DNA of 64,000 nt. Origin: an uncultured delta proteobacterium (lineage in GTDB: Bacteria > Desulfobacterota > Desulfobacteria > Desulfobacterales > SG8-13). The first letter of the stretch is position 1; each line of letters starts with the position of its first letter. The notes beneath the pieces are model-generated. The model had not been told where the DNA came from. It saw only the letters and a list, made by a program, of their open reading frames with translations, and searched no databases. This document shows, one piece after another, positions 10,211-59,771 of the stretch. Made by a program: the position numbers and the translations under genes. The DNA lies in assembly GCA_963848135.1 (NCBI GenBank), contig CAWKCK010000003.1, positions 1-64,000 of the forward strand, in the 5' to 3' direction.

Positions 10211-11002
10211 CTATGATTGACTATGCTGCATCATAAAGAACACGTAGCCGTAATACCTGGAGTATTTACGGTAGACGTCGATCTCCATCTGGACCGAATC
10301 GATCATCTCAATCCGTTCCGGGTCTGTGGCATACTTTTTTCGAAGGGATTGAAGCCGATCTTCCAGTGGGTTGTAGAATGACTCTTTCCAAGCTGACTCC
10401 GGCAGAGTGAATTTTCCTAAAAGATCATACCCACATTTTTTAATAGTTGCCACGTTGGTATCAATATCCACCATGGCAGGATACTCATTGACAAAGAATT
10501 GGTGGCACTCTACCGGGGGGTCGGGTTGTATCCAGGAAAGCTCAGACACCGCCATAAGCCCTCCTGTTGCCATCAAATTCTGGCATGCTGCCAATCCCTC
10601 GCGAAAGCCAATGTTATAGAGTGCTCCCTCTGACCAAATAAGATCAAAGGAACCCTCGGCCAACCCCAAATCGCACATATCTCTCTGGTACTGTTGTATT
10701 TTATCTGAAACACCTTCGGTTTCAGCACGACGCTGCAGCTCGTCTAAGAACGGCTGATGGTTGTCAACTGCCAATATTGTTCCATCAATATGTTTTGCCA
10801 ATTGAATAGTCTGCGCACCGTTACCGCAACCAATATCCAAGACTCTTAGTCTAACAGGACCTGGTTCATCCGTGATTTTCGGTCTCGTCGAAAGCAGCAT
10901 ATCTAAGGCTTGCATAGTTGAGTGGTCGTCTCCAGGTCCAAGGCGAGGTAAGGAAGCATCAAAAATCTCGTAAAAGATCTCCTTTTGATCTTTATCATTC
11001 AT
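10211..11002 (-). CDS. Class I SAM-dependent methyltransferase
   Basis: LPRLGPG, VLDIGCGNG, FDLIWSEGALYNIGF, YYGYVFF. Confidence 0.9.
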   Translation of the reverse strand: MNDKDQKEIFYEIFDASLPRLGPGDDHSTMQALDMLLSTRPKITDEPGPVRLRVLDIGCGNGAQTIQLAKHIDGTILAVDNHQPFLDELQRRAETEGVSDKIQQYQRDMCDLGLAEGSFDLIWSEGALYNIGFREGLAACQNLMATGGLMAVSELSWIQPDPPVECHQFFVNEYPAMVDIDTNVATIKKCGYDLLGKFTLPESAWKESFYNPLEDRLQSLRKKYATDPERIEMIDSVQMEIDVYRKYSRYYGYVFFMMQHSQS

Positions 11003-11438
11003 CGTCCATATCTCCTTAATTTCTTCAACAATTGTCCTATAATAGTGAGCATGCTCACGCAAGATTCTGGTTTTCTCAGGGATTTCTAACGGAGATAAGA
11101 AGTCGCACCGCTATTATCACACACAGCAGAGGTGGGAGCCGTATGCATTGCGAAATAGTTGATGATGACTTCTATTACAGAACAAGTTCCATATAAAAAT
11201 ATTAGACAGTACCAAACCATTTTTGTCAAGTGTGAATTGGTTTGCTAAAATGTTTTCAACATACTGATATGTTTCGATATATCATTTGGAAAACAAATAT
11301 CAAATAAACACTGATGTATTGAAAATATCCCACCAATCTTGCTGCTGTCAAAATCTTTGATTTCATATCCTGCCCGAACCCCTGTAGGTCACTTGGCAAT
11401 TCGATATTGGGTCATTTTATTCTTGACATCCAATAATA

Positions 11439-11458
11439 TTTGTGATTTTTTTCACAAA
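11439..11458. promoter_or_regulatory. CRP/FNR-type palindrome TTTGTGA-N6-TCACAAA
   Basis: Perfect palindrome 10 bp downstream of TTGACA (11423-11428) and 21 bp before ATG 11480. Confidence 0.65.
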
Positions 11459-11479
11459 AATACTGAAAGCCGGAAGGCC

Positions 11480-12307
11480 ATGTCCCAAAATCACTTGAAC
11501 TCCTTATATGCAGCAGTGATCAAACTCCTGCGACCGCTGGTGCGGATATTGCTCAGAAATGGAGTGTCGTACGGTACTTTTGCAGAACTTGCCAAGTGGG
11601 TGTACGTCGATGTCGCATCCAAGGATTTCGTAATAAAGGGCCGCAAACAGACAACCTCACGGGTTTCGACGATCACGGGACTGTCACGCCGAGAAGTCAT
11701 GCGGGTTCGACAGTTGCCGCAGCCGGAGGTCACTGAAATCACAGAGAGGCACAACCGGGCCGCCCGTGTGATTGCAGCCTGGAGACGCGAGAAAAGATTC
11801 CTGGATGAGGCCGGAAAGCCTATCCCCCTTTCAATGGAAGGCAGTGGAGCGACATTCAGCCAACTGGTAAAGCTTTTCAGCGGCAATGTGCCGACCCGTG
11901 CCATTCTCGATGAACTCTTGCGGGTCGGATCGGTGAAGCGGCTGGAGGACGGTAGAATCTCTTTATGCGCCCGAGCCTATATCCCCAAAAGCAATGACCT
12001 TGGCCGACTCCACCTCCTGGGAACCGATGTGAGGCTCCTTCTTTCGACGATCGACCATAATTTGAACCCACGAGTCTCAGAACCGCTCTTCCAACGCAAA
12101 GTCGCCTATGACAACCTACCCGATGAGGTTTTGTCAAAATTTCGCAAACTGTTCCCTATAAGGGCGCAGGCGCTGTTGGAAAACGCCGATCGGTGGTTGG
12201 CCCGACGCGATCGTGATGTGACACCTGCAGTCAAAGGTTCCGGCCGCAATCGGGCTGGATTCGGCATTTTTTTCTTCGAAGAACCCTATTCAGACGAGGA
12301 TACCTGA
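11480..12307 (+). CDS. DUF6502 family protein (HTH-like N-terminus)
   Basis: LLRPLVRILLRNGVSY..F..LAK..YVDVA, SRVSTITGLSRREV, AILDELLRVG, TIDHNL, FQRKVAYDNL. Confidence 0.85.
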   Translation: MSQNHLNSLYAAVIKLLRPLVRILLRNGVSYGTFAELAKWVYVDVASKDFVIKGRKQTTSRVSTITGLSRREVMRVRQLPQPEVTEITERHNRAARVIAAWRREKRFLDEAGKPIPLSMEGSGATFSQLVKLFSGNVPTRAILDELLRVGSVKRLEDGRISLCARAYIPKSNDLGRLHLLGTDVRLLLSTIDHNLNPRVSEPLFQRKVAYDNLPDEVLSKFRKLFPIRAQALLENADRWLARRDRDVTPAVKGSGRNRAGFGIFFFEEPYSDEDT

Positions 12308-12308
12308 A

Positions 12309-13532
12309 ATGAAGGCCTATCTTTTGAATAGCATCCTGCTCGCCCTAGTCATTCTTATCGCTTTGGTGTCACCCAAATTACTGATATCCTGCTCGGGGGG
12401 TGGCGGCCCGTATTTCGCTAGTGGTGGTATCGACGGTTCGGGAATCATCAGCCGGGGACCGATATCGACATTCGGCAGCGTATTTGTCAACGGCACCGAG
12501 TTCGACACAGAAATTGCCGCCATCATGATCAATGGCGACGAAATAGGCATCGGCGACGATGTCGCCAGGGGCAACCTCGACATCGGCAGGGTGGTAACCG
12601 TGGAAGGGAAAAGGTATGGGGATCCCAACACAGCGGTTGCAGACCTCGTTTCTTTCAGCAACGAGGTCAAAGGTCCGGTGGAGAGCGTTTCCGTTACAGG
12701 CCATCTCACCCAGGAAATTGTCGTTCTGGGTCAGAGGATCATCGTAAATGCAGCCACAATTTTCAAAAATACGGCATTCGGCACCATAGGGGAAAACGAC
12801 GTCGTCGAGGTCAGCGGCTTTTTCGATGACACCGGAGTGATTCGGGCCACCTTCATCGGCAAGATCGGGGAGGTCATTCCAGGATTGGAGGCCGAGGTCA
12901 AGGGATATGTCGTTAATCTCGATCCAATATCGATGACCTTCGAGATCAATGGCCTGACAGTCGATTATTTTTCGGCTGATACCAGTGGCTTACCCGGAGA
13001 TCTCCAGGACGATGGATGGTTCGTCGAAGCGGAAGGCATCCTCGGTGACTCCGGTAACGTGATGCTGGCATCGAAAATACAACTTGGAGACGAACTGGAT
13101 GCCGTCGACATCGATGAGATCGAAGTGACTGGATTTGTCACCGTCTTTGATTCGCTCGGGGAGTTCCGCGTTGGCAACCAGCCGGTGCAAACACTTGCGG
13201 ATACACTTTATGTCGATGGGACACAAATGGATATCGCCCTTGGCCGCAAGCTCGAGGCTGAGGGCACTCTCATCGATGGAATCCTTATTGCCGCAGAAAT
13301 TGAGTTCTGGGATCCAGATCAGATCGAGATTGAGGACTTTGTCACCGAAGTTATTTCGGCCTCCGAGTTCACAGTTGGAAACCAGCGGGTGCAGACCGAT
13401 GTGACCACTGTATTTGAAGGGGGACTACCGGAAAACATCGTGCTTGGTGCTAAGATCGAAGTCAAGGGTGTTCCGGCGGATACCGACCGAACTGTTCTTT
13501 TTGCAGACAAGGTTTCTTTTGAGAATCTTTAG
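12309..13532 (+). CDS. DUF5666 repeat-domain exported protein
   Basis: GGIDGSG..SRGPISTFGSVFVNG followed by repeated OB-like units (VEVSG, VEAEG, IEVKG). Confidence 0.85.
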   Translation: MKAYLLNSILLALVILIALVSPKLLISCSGGGGPYFASGGIDGSGIISRGPISTFGSVFVNGTEFDTEIAAIMINGDEIGIGDDVARGNLDIGRVVTVEGKRYGDPNTAVADLVSFSNEVKGPVESVSVTGHLTQEIVVLGQRIIVNAATIFKNTAFGTIGENDVVEVSGFFDDTGVIRATFIGKIGEVIPGLEAEVKGYVVNLDPISMTFEINGLTVDYFSADTSGLPGDLQDDGWFVEAEGILGDSGNVMLASKIQLGDELDAVDIDEIEVTGFVTVFDSLGEFRVGNQPVQTLADTLYVDGTQMDIALGRKLEAEGTLIDGILIAAEIEFWDPDQIEIEDFVTEVISASEFTVGNQRVQTDVTTVFEGGLPENIVLGAKIEVKGVPADTDRTVLFADKVSFENL

Positions 13533-13681: not shown

Positions 13682-13832
13682 GAGTGTAAAAAGCCAAGCA
13701 CAGGACTTTGGCGGGTCGGTGTGCTTGGCTTGGAAAACCTGAGGGCCTTGCGGCACACTCAAGCGACATGAGTATATCGATTTATCTGTCGAGTGTCAAC
13801 GGGCTCTCCACAACGGGATGGAGGGCTTTTTT
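13682..13832 (+). promoter_or_regulatory. Structured leader ending in an intrinsic terminator (candidate cis-regulatory RNA)
   Basis: Hairpin aagccaagcac/gtgcttggctt; alternative gagtgt/acactc pairings; terminator-like ggctctcca...tggagggc-tttttt upstream of 13976. Confidence 0.45.
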
Positions 13833-13975: not shown

Positions 13976-14764
13976 ATGAAAAACACATCAAACATCAAAT
14001 GCAAGACGAATCACAAAAAGTATTGGCCTTTTCTCATGGTGGCAGTGGTTGCTCTCATCTTGGGAGCCGCTGCCGCGAAAAGTTGGGCCAATGATGACGA
14101 GGACGAACTCACGCTTGCAACACTCAAATTCTTTATCGAGTTCAACGAAACCGATGAAGACATTGGTGTACAAGCCGTGCTGGGTGGAGAACCATACACG
14201 AGACTCAGTGCCTACGGGCCAAACGGACGCAGGATCCTCGATCTCAGACCCAGACGCGGGTTGAAGAGACAGGGCATGAGCGATTTTTTCTTCGAGAGCG
14301 CCGAGCCGACGCTCGACGAATTTCCACTCGATAAGTTTCTGAGCCGTTTCCCCGTGGGTGAATACGAGTTCGAAACCATTACGGTCGACGGACTTGAGCA
14401 GGATGGCGAGACGTTGCTTACCCACGTTATTCCGGCCGGACCAGAAATTGCCTCTCCCGAAGAAGCTGAAGTGGTCGACCCTGACAACGTGATTATTTCA
14501 TGGGAGCCTGTTACAATGACCACGGCATTTAATCCGCCGCAGGCGCCGGTCATGATCGTCGGCTACCAGGTCATCGTCACCAGAGAAGACCCTCTGCGCG
14601 TCATTAGCTTCGATGTCTCAGCCGAAACCACAAGTATCACTCTGCCACCCGGGTTGCTCGATCCGGGCATGGAGTACGAACTCGAAATCCTGGCCATCGA
14701 AGAAAGCGATAACCAAACGATCAGTCTGCTGTTTTTTGAAACCGCAGAGCGAGCAGAGCCGTAG
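13976..14764 (+). CDS. Secreted acidic protein with C-terminal fibronectin-III-like domain
   Basis: Signal peptide, FFIEFNETDEDIG, FFESAEP, ISWEPV...GYQVIV...LDPGMEYELEILAIEE. Confidence 0.75.
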   Translation: MKNTSNIKCKTNHKKYWPFLMVAVVALILGAAAAKSWANDDEDELTLATLKFFIEFNETDEDIGVQAVLGGEPYTRLSAYGPNGRRILDLRPRRGLKRQGMSDFFFESAEPTLDEFPLDKFLSRFPVGEYEFETITVDGLEQDGETLLTHVIPAGPEIASPEEAEVVDPDNVIISWEPVTMTTAFNPPQAPVMIVGYQVIVTREDPLRVISFDVSAETTSITLPPGLLDPGMEYELEILAIEESDNQTISLLFFETAERAEP

Positions 14765-59714: not shown

Positions 59715-59771
59715 GTACCTTTTTTTGAGAATAATTTCTCAAGTACGGAAGAATAATATTAGAAAGCGCGC

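Follow-up and report, generated by a model that had tools for sequence, protein, structure and literature searches.

The CRP consensus is TGTGA-N6-TCACA, and sites of the HcpR type are known from sulfate reducers. A perfect copy of this string lies at the promoter of a two-gene operon in the window (the term used here for the whole stretch of DNA that was analysed, 64,000 nucleotides long), and the first gene of this operon encodes a protein of the DUF6502 family. The question raised by the locus is which protein reads the box: a CRP-like factor of the host, or DUF6502 itself. Our main finding is that DUF6502 probably represses its own operon through the palindrome. The features concerned are the following, with positions in the window.

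11423-11428, forward strand: -35-like hexamer TTGACA, read directly from the sequence.
11439-11458, no strand: 20-bp palindrome TTTGTGA-TTTTTT-TCACAAA, candidate operator of DUF6502, from direct reading and conservation.
11446-11451, forward strand: TTTTTT, presumed position of the -10 hexamer, 17 nt past TTGACA, from the geometry of relatives.
11472-11477, forward strand: Shine-Dalgarno-like GGAAGG, of presumed function, 2 nt ahead of the ATG at 11480.
11480-12307, forward strand: DUF6502 gene (275 amino acids, pI 10.2), product a probable autorepressor.
11570-11713, forward strand: codons 31-78 of DUF6502, predicted tri-helical helix-turn-helix (HTH) domain, with helices 31-49 and 59-66 and recognition helix 70-78.
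11735-11974, forward strand: codons 86-165 of DUF6502, predicted winged-helix domain, with helices 126-133 and 139-148 and strands 152-154 and 160-162.
12309-13532, forward strand: gene of the DUF5666 repeat lipoprotein (PF18914; 407 amino acids, pI 4.05).
13976-14764, forward strand: gene of an acidic exported FN3-like protein (fn3 match weak and under the cut-off, E 0.0025).

The TTGACA hexamer, the palindrome, the DUF6502 gene, the 1-nt gap and the gene of an exported repeat protein were all found where an earlier examination of the letters alone (the sequence-only reading) had placed them. The exact core TGTGA-N6-TCACA occupies 11441-11456, and the stop codon TGA of the DUF6502 gene (12305-12307) is separated by a single nucleotide from the ATG of the DUF5666 gene (12309). 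At the -10 position, TTTTTT is a poor match, and it is preceded by a TG at 11443-11444. A promoter scan of the window did not call the operon promoter because this -10 hexamer has no A at position 2; it listed another promoter-like site at 11223-11251. One run of a sediment metatranscriptome gave a single contig of 188 nt, corresponding to 12823-13010 of the DUF5666 gene; no contig of the same run lay on the promoter or on DUF6502, and since such contigs cannot show a transcription start they are uninformative on the promoter.

By itself, the palindromic string would not be convincing. The window contains one exact TGTGA-N6-TCACA for 0.07 expected, and at least one occurred in 7 of 100 shuffles; with one mismatch allowed, the single match compares with 1.62 expected, which is not unusual. 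Exact copies number three in the 6.03 Mb genome, about the random expectation, and the other two are intragenic. Chance was rejected as the origin of the palindrome for a reason other than the window count, namely that the palindrome is kept upstream of homologous DUF6502 genes. The exact string precedes all seven of the seven close homologues on genome contigs and is also found at further metagenome loci, and at these seven loci the flanks and the distance from palindrome to start codon vary. In promoter footprints made of unique 90-mers (17 of the TGTGA class and 57 of the TGGGA class), the only conserved blocks are the -35 hexamer and the palindrome; a T-rich tract lies upstream of the -35. 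The sequence-only reading had suggested a motif search upstream of DUF6502 homologues, and the palindrome is there at the same promoter position across four classes: the DUF6502 genes of Desulfobacterota and of Beta-, Gamma- and Alphaproteobacteria have an exact or near-exact copy ahead of them, those on alphaproteobacterial plasmids having the form GTGGGA-N5-TCCCAC. On this comparative ground, we take the palindrome to be a conserved operator rather than a chance CRP box, and it appears to travel with the DUF6502 gene, not with the host.

A matrix made from 16 related sites was also run over the genome; the window site scored 35.9 bits and the next best 25.3 bits. This second match (C17:620429), which is a half-site where a lepA-like gene starts, was set aside as chance, as was TGAGA-N6-TCTCA at 59722 of the window, which stands behind a terminator-like hairpin between convergent open reading frames.

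Promoter geometry was examined on 78 operator-bearing loci, defined by a site with at most one mismatch, the -35 and -10 elements being consensus matches and not mapped transcription starts. A hexamer matching TTGACA at five or more of its six positions precedes the operator at 66 of the 78, and the start of the -35-like hexamer is 24.5 nt from the dyad centre at 43 loci and 25.5 nt at 17 (60 of 78 together). This fixed distance from a -35-like TTGAC centres the palindrome on the -10 position. Indeed, TATAAT-like hexamers occupy in relatives the place of the window's TTTTTT: the best TATAAT match inside the operator is 6/6 at 14 loci, 5/6 at 25 and 4/6 at 32, and an A/T spacer with a 5/6 or 6/6 match is present at 39 of the 78. 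The 'repressor-like position' remarked on earlier is therefore borne out, and can be stated more sharply, as the dyad centre coincides with the -10 position and does not merely fall in the interval between the -35 and the start codon.

The palindrome is accompanied by a constant pair of genes. The product of the second matches PF18914 (DUF5666) in four stretches (122.6 bits for a cut-off of 27), and starts with a lipoprotein-type signal whose lipobox is LISC (Cys28). A DUF5666 homologue lies directly 3' of DUF6502 at 19 of 19 genome loci with downstream DNA, and the two are the only genes common to the loci, no third gene being conserved. From this gene order, the lipoprotein would be the co-transcribed cargo of the operon. 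RefSeq annotates the same pair in Methylocystis, Azospirillum, Variovorax and Rhizobium, and it also resides on plasmids of cultured carriers (Azospirillum lipoferum 4B, Rhizobium, Methylocystis and Variovorax). DUF6502 is patchy in distribution (3 of 41 genomes of relatives, 21 of 401 in the phylum), and the family comprises 6381 clusters at 50% identity in a representative library (E up to 0.001). Literature searched by DUF6502 and PF20112 returned no publication, and for DUF5666 incidental mentions only. Homologues of the FN3-like gene lie downstream of the pair at two other loci, L004 (two copies) and L007; in the window's clade, this gene may belong to the module as an accessory.

What kind of protein is DUF6502? 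Its residues 8-268 align with positions 3-263 of the 268 positions of PF20112 (309.8 bits for a cut-off of 27, E 1.4e-92). An AlphaFold model of the monomer, made with 142 sequences, reached a pLDDT of 91.1 and a pTM of 0.78, and superseded a mediocre one made with 29 sequences (pLDDT 73.6, pTM 0.42); the block-mean pLDDT is 87-98 over residues 21-80. In this model, an HTH is present and is followed by a winged helix. The segment SRVSTITGLSRREV, previously described as HTH-like, is indeed predicted to form a helix-turn-helix with helices 59-66 and 70-78. Residues 30-85 superpose on the HTH of TetR-type proteins (FadR, TetR) and of sigma region 4 with Z 6.5-7.2 and rmsd 1.7-2.9 Å over 49-54 residues. 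The recognition helix 70-78 reads RREVMRVRQ, and includes R70, R71, E72 and R75; G67 is invariant, and R70 is found in 141 of 142 diverse relatives. Codons 86-165 resemble winged-helix domains with Z 7.2-7.3 and rmsd 2.0-2.4 Å over 60-67 residues, and C-terminal to them come a long helical hairpin and a conserved tail, G-x-G-I-F/Y-F/Y-F-E. Sequence-specific DNA binding is the most likely function of DUF6502.

Sequence searches gave little beyond the family itself. A profile search of PDB sequences with DUF6502 returned designed (helical) repeat proteins only, NCBIfam had no match for the three proteins, and the protein atlas had no usable match for DUF6502. Among 29 DUF6502 members searched against Pfam at E up to 10, matches other than PF20112 were weak and scattered. 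Three of the 29 matched HTH_Crp_2 weakly (best E 0.028), which favours an HTH inside DUF6502 and not a separate factor, and Pfam detected no cNMP-binding domain in DUF6502.

The core of the operator varies together with one residue of the recognition helix. Among 119 loci, K71 is associated with a TGGG core at 70 and R71 with a TGTG core at 22, an association beyond statistical testing because the tree needs only two transitions (one or two independent pairs, too few for a test); the crossed combinations, K71 with TGTG and R71 with TGGG, were found at none of the 119. Of 112 loci whose upstream DNA is long enough, 20 (12 of the K71 type, 8 of the R71 type) lack an exact TG[TG]G-N7-9-C[AC]CA site, and part of these 20 have a one-mismatch or variant form instead. 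Nothing recognisable was found upstream at L032, L078, L079, L097, L110, L121, L123 and L124, and one exception, L009, combines R71 with a degenerate TGGAA...TCCCA. Two distinct clades have R71 with TGTG: that of the window (24 rows, SH-aLRT 99) and a deep TATGTGC clade (L014, L018 and L122). Residue 71 would probably read the third base of TG[T/G]GA, K going with G and R with T.

With TGGG/CCCA cores at 70 of 92 scored loci, the TGTG core of the window is in the minority, and its TGTGA form appears to derive from the commoner, apparently older TGGGA form. A single symmetric G-to-T change leads from TGGGA to TGTGA, so that the likeness to a CRP box would be a by-product, most likely late and coincidental.

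We propose the following mechanism. DUF6502 would act as a dimer, the N-terminal HTH of which reads both half-sites of TTTGTGA-N6-TCACAAA with helix 70-78. The dimer, sitting over the -10 on which the palindrome is centred, would keep RNA polymerase off the TTGACA-N17 promoter, and thereby repress both genes of the operon, its own and that of the acidic DUF5666 lipoprotein. Binding by DUF6502, its dimerisation, repression over activation and the residue-base contacts are what we infer here. Conservation of the site, its geometry, co-inheritance of the genes, the R/K association, the predicted folds and the uniqueness in the genome are computed. The suggestion of the sequence-only reading that DUF6502 binds this box and regulates itself thus gains support from both sides: the box follows the gene across four classes, sits on the -10 and has a core that covaries with a recognition-helix residue, while the protein is modelled with an HTH and a winged helix and has a pI of 10.2.

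Could DUF6502 bind the site, and activate the operon or play a dual role? The poor -10 of the window could mean that its promoter needs help, but a dyad on the -10 with a -35/-10 spacer of 16-17 nt is the classical geometry of occlusion, and MerR-type activators centre on an over-long spacer. Furthermore, 14 of the 78 loci have a perfect TATAAT within the operator, and these promoters should therefore be strong when the site is free. The regulator HetR is the only full-length structural match of DUF6502, and HetR activates its target promoters according to PMC4649674, which speaks for this reading; we consider it improbable.

It is likewise improbable that some other, unlinked protein, such as a special sigma factor or a nucleoid protein, reads the block, the palindrome being then part of an extended promoter element. 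The block does overlap the core promoter, and a T-rich tract lies ahead of the -35. However, the two-fold symmetry and the joint changes of the arms point to a dimeric regulator and not to a sigma factor, the site tracks a patchy gene pair across phyla, and its core varies with a residue of the protein encoded alongside, at loci that have no third conserved gene.

That a CRP- or HcpR-like factor of the CRP/FNR family controls the pair, with DUF6502 as cargo, was the other proposal of the sequence-only reading, and we find it unsupported and very unlikely. Its description of the box as the CRP-family consensus is right for the core letters, but misleading as biology, the relatives having mostly TGGGA-N6-TCCCA. 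This form is not the CRP consensus, and with it or GTGGGA-N5-TCCCAC in most relatives, a matching factor would be needed in four classes. The genome does encode one clear Crp/Fnr protein (HTH_Crp_2, 66.3 bits, above the cut-off; one further match is weak). The helix of this protein is PETLSRIF, an E..SR type that looks FNR-like, with a presumed specificity for TTGAT and not TGTGA. A CRP regulon was dismissed, as neither exact nor matrix searches of the genome gave further promoter sites: the exact boxes are only three in 6.03 Mb, with two inside genes, and no other strong matrix match exists genome-wide. Moreover, CRP-type activator sites are centred at -41.5 or -61.5, and this dyad is on the -10.

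A nucleic-acid hairpin (RNA or single-stranded DNA) is scarcely credible: both arms changed together from TGGGA/TCCCA to TGTGA/TCACA, and the RNA folds at -6.7 kcal/mol (z -2.28, equalled in 7 of 200 shuffles), but the stem is short and A/T-rich, the -10 is in the loop position with the predicted transcript starting after or inside the right arm, the arm sequence is constant across phyla when pairing alone needs no such constancy, and within classes there are 30 one-sided arm deviations for 1 compensatory change (336 pair cells). We rejected it on the weak fold and on this within-class variation, which does not preserve pairing; selection appears to act on the operator sequence rather than on pairing.

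The proposed autorepression by DUF6502 invites comparison with HetR. Foldseek aligned the DUF6502 model with HetR over 306 columns (E 6.7e-4, probability 1.00, TM 0.38), and the VIA structure search ranked HetR first of 48,161 chains (Z 8.0-8.1, 214-224 residues, rmsd 10.2-10.8 Å), a Z near 8 that may reflect only a common arrangement. The HetR structures concerned are PDB 4J00, 4IZZ, 4YRV, 4HRI and 3QOD (filamentous cyanobacteria, hetP operator). Neither search gave another match over the full length, and this one is weak: with an rmsd of 10-11 Å and a TM of 0.38, the two proteins either differ in how their domains are arranged or resemble each other only as an arrangement of common parts. 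The two proteins are similar in size (about 299 residues for HetR, 275 for DUF6502) and have the same order of parts, those of HetR being a DNA-binding domain, a flap and a hood. In structural alignments their identity is 11-16%, and no sequence similarity was found; the HetR profile of Pfam, Peptidase_S48, was absent from 29 DUF6502 members at E up to 10. For the HetR flap a novel fold has been described; the middle domain of DUF6502, in contrast, is a winged helix of the ordinary kind. HetR forms an intertwined homodimer. According to PMC4649674, HetR binds an inverted repeat with GGG/CCC cores, with Lys73 on the G bases, and a title cited in PMC12669612 reports HetR to be autoregulated. The DUF6502 operator is GGG-N8-CCC and lies on the -10, while that of HetR is GGG-N5-CCC.

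It is conceivable, although we hold it to be doubtful, that DUF6502 is a remote relative of HetR, and that HetR-type factors form a very large family reaching beyond cyanobacteria, each member guarding its own envelope-lipoprotein operon. This tentative reading includes the rule at residue 71 (K with G, R with T) and operators over the -10. The C-terminal part of DUF6502 might, like the HetR hood, receive a peptide or envelope-derived signal. A recent study dates the origin of hetR within cyanobacteria (PMC12669612). If the link were true, the master regulator of heterocysts would have relatives outside cyanobacteria, and HetR-type factors, spread over Proteobacteria, Desulfobacterota and beyond, would not be a cyanobacterial invention. 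As for DUF6502, a very large and unstudied family is given a function that can be tested, a defined DNA target and a candidate for the residue that sets specificity, and its role is approachable experimentally in the cultured carriers. The locus also calls for caution in regulon prediction: a perfect CRP box ahead of a gene may belong to an unrelated regulator that uses it as an operator of its own.

The palindrome shares its ten core letters and its 6-nt spacer with a CRP/HcpR site, which is likewise a two-fold symmetric target, read by an HTH dimer. It differs in being unique in the genome, centred on the -10 and apparently derived from TGGGA-N6-TCCCA. There is also a parallel in layout with classical autorepressors (LexA, TetR-type and MarR-type): there too, the regulator gene comes first in its own operon, and one palindromic operator lies across the -10. 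The likeness extends to the folds, as the TetR-type HTH superposes on that of DUF6502 (Z 6.5, rmsd 1.7 Å, 49 residues) and the winged helices of MarR and IclR resemble its own (Z 5.8-6.2). DUF6502 is a member of none of the LexA, TetR and MarR families of Pfam and, unlike the classical autorepressors, would carry an HTH and a winged helix on the same chain, ahead of its long helical hairpin and conserved tail. Its cargo is an envelope lipoprotein, where theirs is an efflux or repair gene.

Comparison of homologous loci suggests that DUF6502 is probably an autorepressor of its own operon, working through a palindromic operator that lies over the -10. Autoregulation of the box by DUF6502 was one of two alternatives raised by the sequence-only reading, and it is supported by a conserved site, an operator core that tracks the protein, the -10 geometry and a predicted helix-turn-helix (HTH). 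The features concerned are as follows.

10211-11062 (-): methyltransferase gene, divergent upstream neighbour of DUF6502
11423-11428 (+): TTGACA, -35-like, read from the sequence
11439-11458: palindrome TTTGTGA-TTTTTT-TCACAAA, read from the sequence
11472-11477 (+): GGAAGG, read from the sequence, ahead of the ATG at 11480
11480-12307 (+): DUF6502 ORF, 275 aa, stop TGA at 12305-12307
12309-13532 (+): DUF5666 ORF, 407 aa, its ATG at 12309 one base after the DUF6502 stop
13976-14764 (+): exported acidic protein (pI 4.27), weak fibronectin type III (FN3) match

The palindrome between TTGACA and ATG and the 1-nt gap between the genes were all found in the sequence, so the initial description of the layout was accurate. 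Profile searches identify the first product as full-length PF20112 (E 1.4e-92, 309.8 bits) and find four DUF5666 stretches in the second (PF18914, 122.6 bits), the "exported repeat protein" first described, whose N-terminus is a lipoprotein-type signal with LISC at its end. The two products contrast in charge, the DUF5666 protein being very acidic (pI 4.05) and DUF6502 basic (pI 10.2). The database representative P0001, listed as 100% identical, differs at one residue from the translation of 11480-12304 (E instead of G in ...LLRVGSV...). The intergenic region between the methyltransferase and DUF6502 genes measures 417 bp. On the other side, 443 nt separate the DUF5666 gene from the FN3-like gene, and this gap contains, on the minus strand, a promoter-like site close to consensus (13799..13771, TTGACA-17-TATACT, 11/12 matches) and, on the plus strand, a hairpin resembling a terminator, T run included (13801-13828). 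Two homologous loci, L004 (two copies) and L007, have FN3-like homologues downstream of the pair, and the gene is a possible third module member in the window's clade. A proteomics study of Dissulfuribacter thermophilus under thiosulfate disproportionation places one DUF5666 protein and one FN3 protein among its 20 most abundant (PMC13490349, Table 1), which is a lead only as regards this module. Metatranscriptome data yielded one contig, 188 nt long, within the DUF5666 gene, which carries no information on the promoter.

Counts alone give only a weak separation of the palindrome from chance: the window has one exact core where 0.07 would be expected, one is also found when a mismatch is allowed (1.62 expected), which is unremarkable, and just 3 exact copies exist in the 6.03 Mb genome. 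We regard as decisive against chance the conservation seen across homologous loci, which were taken from genome contigs (19), metagenome contigs (80, the best 80 of 285 confirmed), whole-genome searches of relatives (L002 and L003) and of the phylum (23), and plasmids of cultured bacteria (5). The palindrome does recur upstream of homologous operons, one of the two points by which the sequence-only reading had proposed to judge its idea: exact TGTGA-N6-TCACA is present in 7/7 close genome loci (67-74% identity), 51-77 nt upstream of the start codon and preceded each time by TTGACA, in otherwise unrelated DNA. When loci are grouped by operator core, promoter footprints of both the TGTGA class (17 unique 90-mers) and the TGGGA class (57) show conservation only of the -35 block and the palindrome. 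A different palindrome, TGAGA-N6-TCTCA (window 59718-59741), is the third-best genome match (18.5 bits) to an operator matrix built from 16 related sites; it lies between convergent ORFs, just past a GC-rich terminator-like hairpin, and is probably due to chance.

DUF6502 is patchily distributed, being found in 3/41 genomes of relatives, the window's own included, and in 21/401 genomes of the phylum; it is abundant overall, one search at E up to 1e-5 counting 4715 proteins and another at E up to 0.001 giving 6381 clusters (50% identity). Distant homologues carry a palindrome at the same place in other letters: TTTGGGA-N6-TCCCAAA in most Desulfobacterota and metagenome loci, the one-mismatch form TTTGGG-N8-CCCAAA in Betaproteobacteria, TATGTGC-N7-GCACATA or its variant TATGGT-N9-CACATA in Alpha- and Gammaproteobacterial MAGs, TATGTGC-N5-GCACATA in one deep Desulfobacterota copy (L122), and GTGGGA-N5-TCCCAC in plasmid copies of Methylocystis, Microvirga and Azospirillum. 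Only the DUF6502-DUF5666 pair is common to these loci; a DUF5666 homologue directly follows DUF6502 in 19/19 genome loci having downstream DNA, and four cultured genera have this pair in their RefSeq annotation. Because the site follows this horizontally scattered pair through four bacterial classes, diverging along the protein tree, it would most simply be the site of DUF6502, the sole cytoplasmic protein of the two. In Methylocystis, Azospirillum lipoferum 4B, Variovorax WDL1, Rhizobium and Microvirga (L126-L130) the pair resides on large plasmids or chromids, and 74 plasmid records match, 65 of them from Rhizobium. An outer-membrane beta-barrel gene comes after the pair in Methylocystis. 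The Azospirillum operator lies 124 nt upstream of the annotated GTG start, which may be placed too far downstream, or else the leader may be long. One Desulfobacterota genome (G115) has four DUF6502 matches (L121, L123, L124, L125), with no recognisable operator within 100 nt upstream of any of them; some sit in long open frames (518 and 1089 aa), possibly fusions.

The "repressor-like position" first noted is borne out by promoter geometry. A TTGACA-like hexamer (at least 5/6) is present in 66 of the 78 operator-bearing loci (operator with at most 1 mismatch), its start lying 24.5 nt before the dyad centre in 43 loci, 25.5 nt in 17 and 23.5-27.5 nt in the other 6; the resulting 16-17 nt spacer therefore places the -10 hexamer mid-palindrome. 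Within the A/T spacer of the operator, the match to TATAAT is 6/6 in 14 of the 78 loci, 5/6 in 25, 4/6 in 32 and lower in 7. To judge from these spacings, the position is that expected of repression by occlusion. The window itself is a weakness of this reading, its central hexamer being the poor TTTTTT and a promoter scan of the window having failed to call the DUF6502 promoter at 11423; the TG at 11443-11444 may act as an extended -10. In 37 TGGGA-class loci (for example L058, L061, L067 and L071) the start codon falls 3-4 nt past the operator core, about 8 nt after the internal TATAAT, which suggests leaderless DUF6502 mRNAs; in the window's class the start codon is instead preceded by a leader of 23-61 nt that includes a ribosome-binding site. 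A second promoter-like site (11223-11251, plus strand, TTGTCA-17-TAAAAT with an upstream TG, 10/12 matches) is found some 230 nt ahead of the DUF6502 start codon and, if it is active, the operator would be a roadblock for its transcription.

Within the conserved DUF6502 segment ITGLSRREVMRVR, one position, residue 71, varies in step with the operator. Residue and core were tabulated for 119 proteins of at least 200 aa from 125 loci, leaving out truncated (L012, L013), frameshifted (L021, L022), startless (L076, no start found) and partial (L125) copies; a site was an exact TG[TG]G-N7-9-C[AC]CA within -150 to +3 of the start codon. K71 accompanies TGGG in 70 loci and R71 accompanies TGTG in 22, with 0 cases each of K71 with TGTG and R71 with TGGG; the exact site was not found in 12 K71 and 8 R71 loci, and 7 loci (K or R) had too little upstream DNA to score. 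The truncated copies agree with the rule (L012, R with TGTGA; L013, K with TGGGA...GCCCA), L009 departs from it (R with a degenerate TGGAA...TCCCA), and several loci have no recognisable operator at all. The R/TGTGA group to which the window belongs, 24 rows in a tree calculated with the helix columns removed, forms a single clade there (SH-aLRT 99) and branches from within K/TGGGA lineages. The full set requires only 2 changes per character, which coincide, giving 1-2 independent pairs, so that tests allowing for relatedness are powerless for the R/K association. In a wider set of 142 diverse relatives, 112 have K and 23 have R at position 71, R70 is kept in 141 and G67 in every one; K with TGGGA is therefore the commoner combination, from which the CRP-like TGTGA of the window is apparently derived.

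A change in both arms of the palindrome would also fit a hairpin rather than a protein site, since it is compatible with pairing, and the RNA fold (-6.7 kcal/mol, z -2.28) points the same way. However, among 336 arm-pair cells from 48 unique 20-mers within the two classes, 304 are consensus, 30 differ on one side only and lose complementarity, 1 has a compensatory change and 1 is changed on both sides without complementarity. With one-sided changes far outnumbering compensatory ones (30 versus 1), selection acts on half-site letters and not on pairing.

Control of the pair by a host CRP/HcpR-like factor through the box, the other alternative first raised, is very improbable: the other two exact boxes in the genome are intragenic, the DUF6502 promoter scores 35.9 bits with the operator matrix against 25.3 for the next genome match (a half-site at a lepA-like start), and the operator changes with the protein and not the host, residue 71 tracking the core and the dyad lying on the -10. 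Only one genome protein exceeds the Crp-type HTH cut-off, and its helix, PETLSRIF, we take to be of FNR rather than CRP type; the unique site, this helix and the comparative evidence therefore leave little room for such a factor. This only clear Crp/Fnr regulator of the window's genome (G000:C12:21960-22649, minus strand, 229 aa, HTH_Crp_2 66.3 bits) adjoins an ORF that looks rubrerythrin-like or ferritin-like, judged from its sequence by eye.

For DUF6502 as the binding protein, structure prediction also supplies the HTH that had been suspected. A model from 29 sequences was mediocre, and one from 142 diverse relatives reached pLDDT 91.1 and pTM 0.78. In the latter, residues 30-85 are predicted to form a tri-helical HTH (helices 31-49, 59-66 and 70-78) that can be overlaid on the corresponding domains of FadR, TetR and sigma region 4 (Z 6.5-7.2, rmsd 1.7-2.9 A, 49-54 residues), followed by a putative winged helix at 86-165 (Z 7.2-7.3, rmsd 2.0-2.4 A), a long modelled helical hairpin (173-241) and a conserved tail. 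The covarying residue 71 would be the second of the third HTH helix, the usual reading helix. Since residue 71 covaries from there, and since RAILDELLRV, the helix of the winged-helix domain, is acidic and shows no variation in step with the operator, we infer that the site is read by the N-terminal HTH.

The only full-length structural match to the model is HetR. Foldseek aligns the two with E 6.7e-4, probability 1.00 and TM 0.38 over 306 columns (best other match, E 0.099), and VIA-align ranks HetR first of 48,161 chains (Z 8.0-8.1, rmsd 10.2-10.8 A, 214-224 residues), with the tool's own caution that a Z of about 8 can arise from a common arrangement. As described in PMC4649674, HetR comprises a DNA-binding domain (1-98, HTH alpha4-alpha5), a flap (99-216) and a hood (217-299), and its target is an inverted repeat with GGG/CCC cores whose G bases are touched by Lys73. 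The order of parts is the same in the DUF6502 model; against homology, searches gave no sequence signal and the superposition rmsd is large, and a true relationship is plausible, though we would put it at somewhat less than an even chance. A literature search by the names DUF6502 and PF20112 found no paper on the family; to that extent the family itself, the operator, residue 71 as a candidate for specificity and a possible ancestry shared with HetR are new to the literature. The proposed mechanism is of a classical type, autorepression through a palindromic operator that covers the regulator's own -10.
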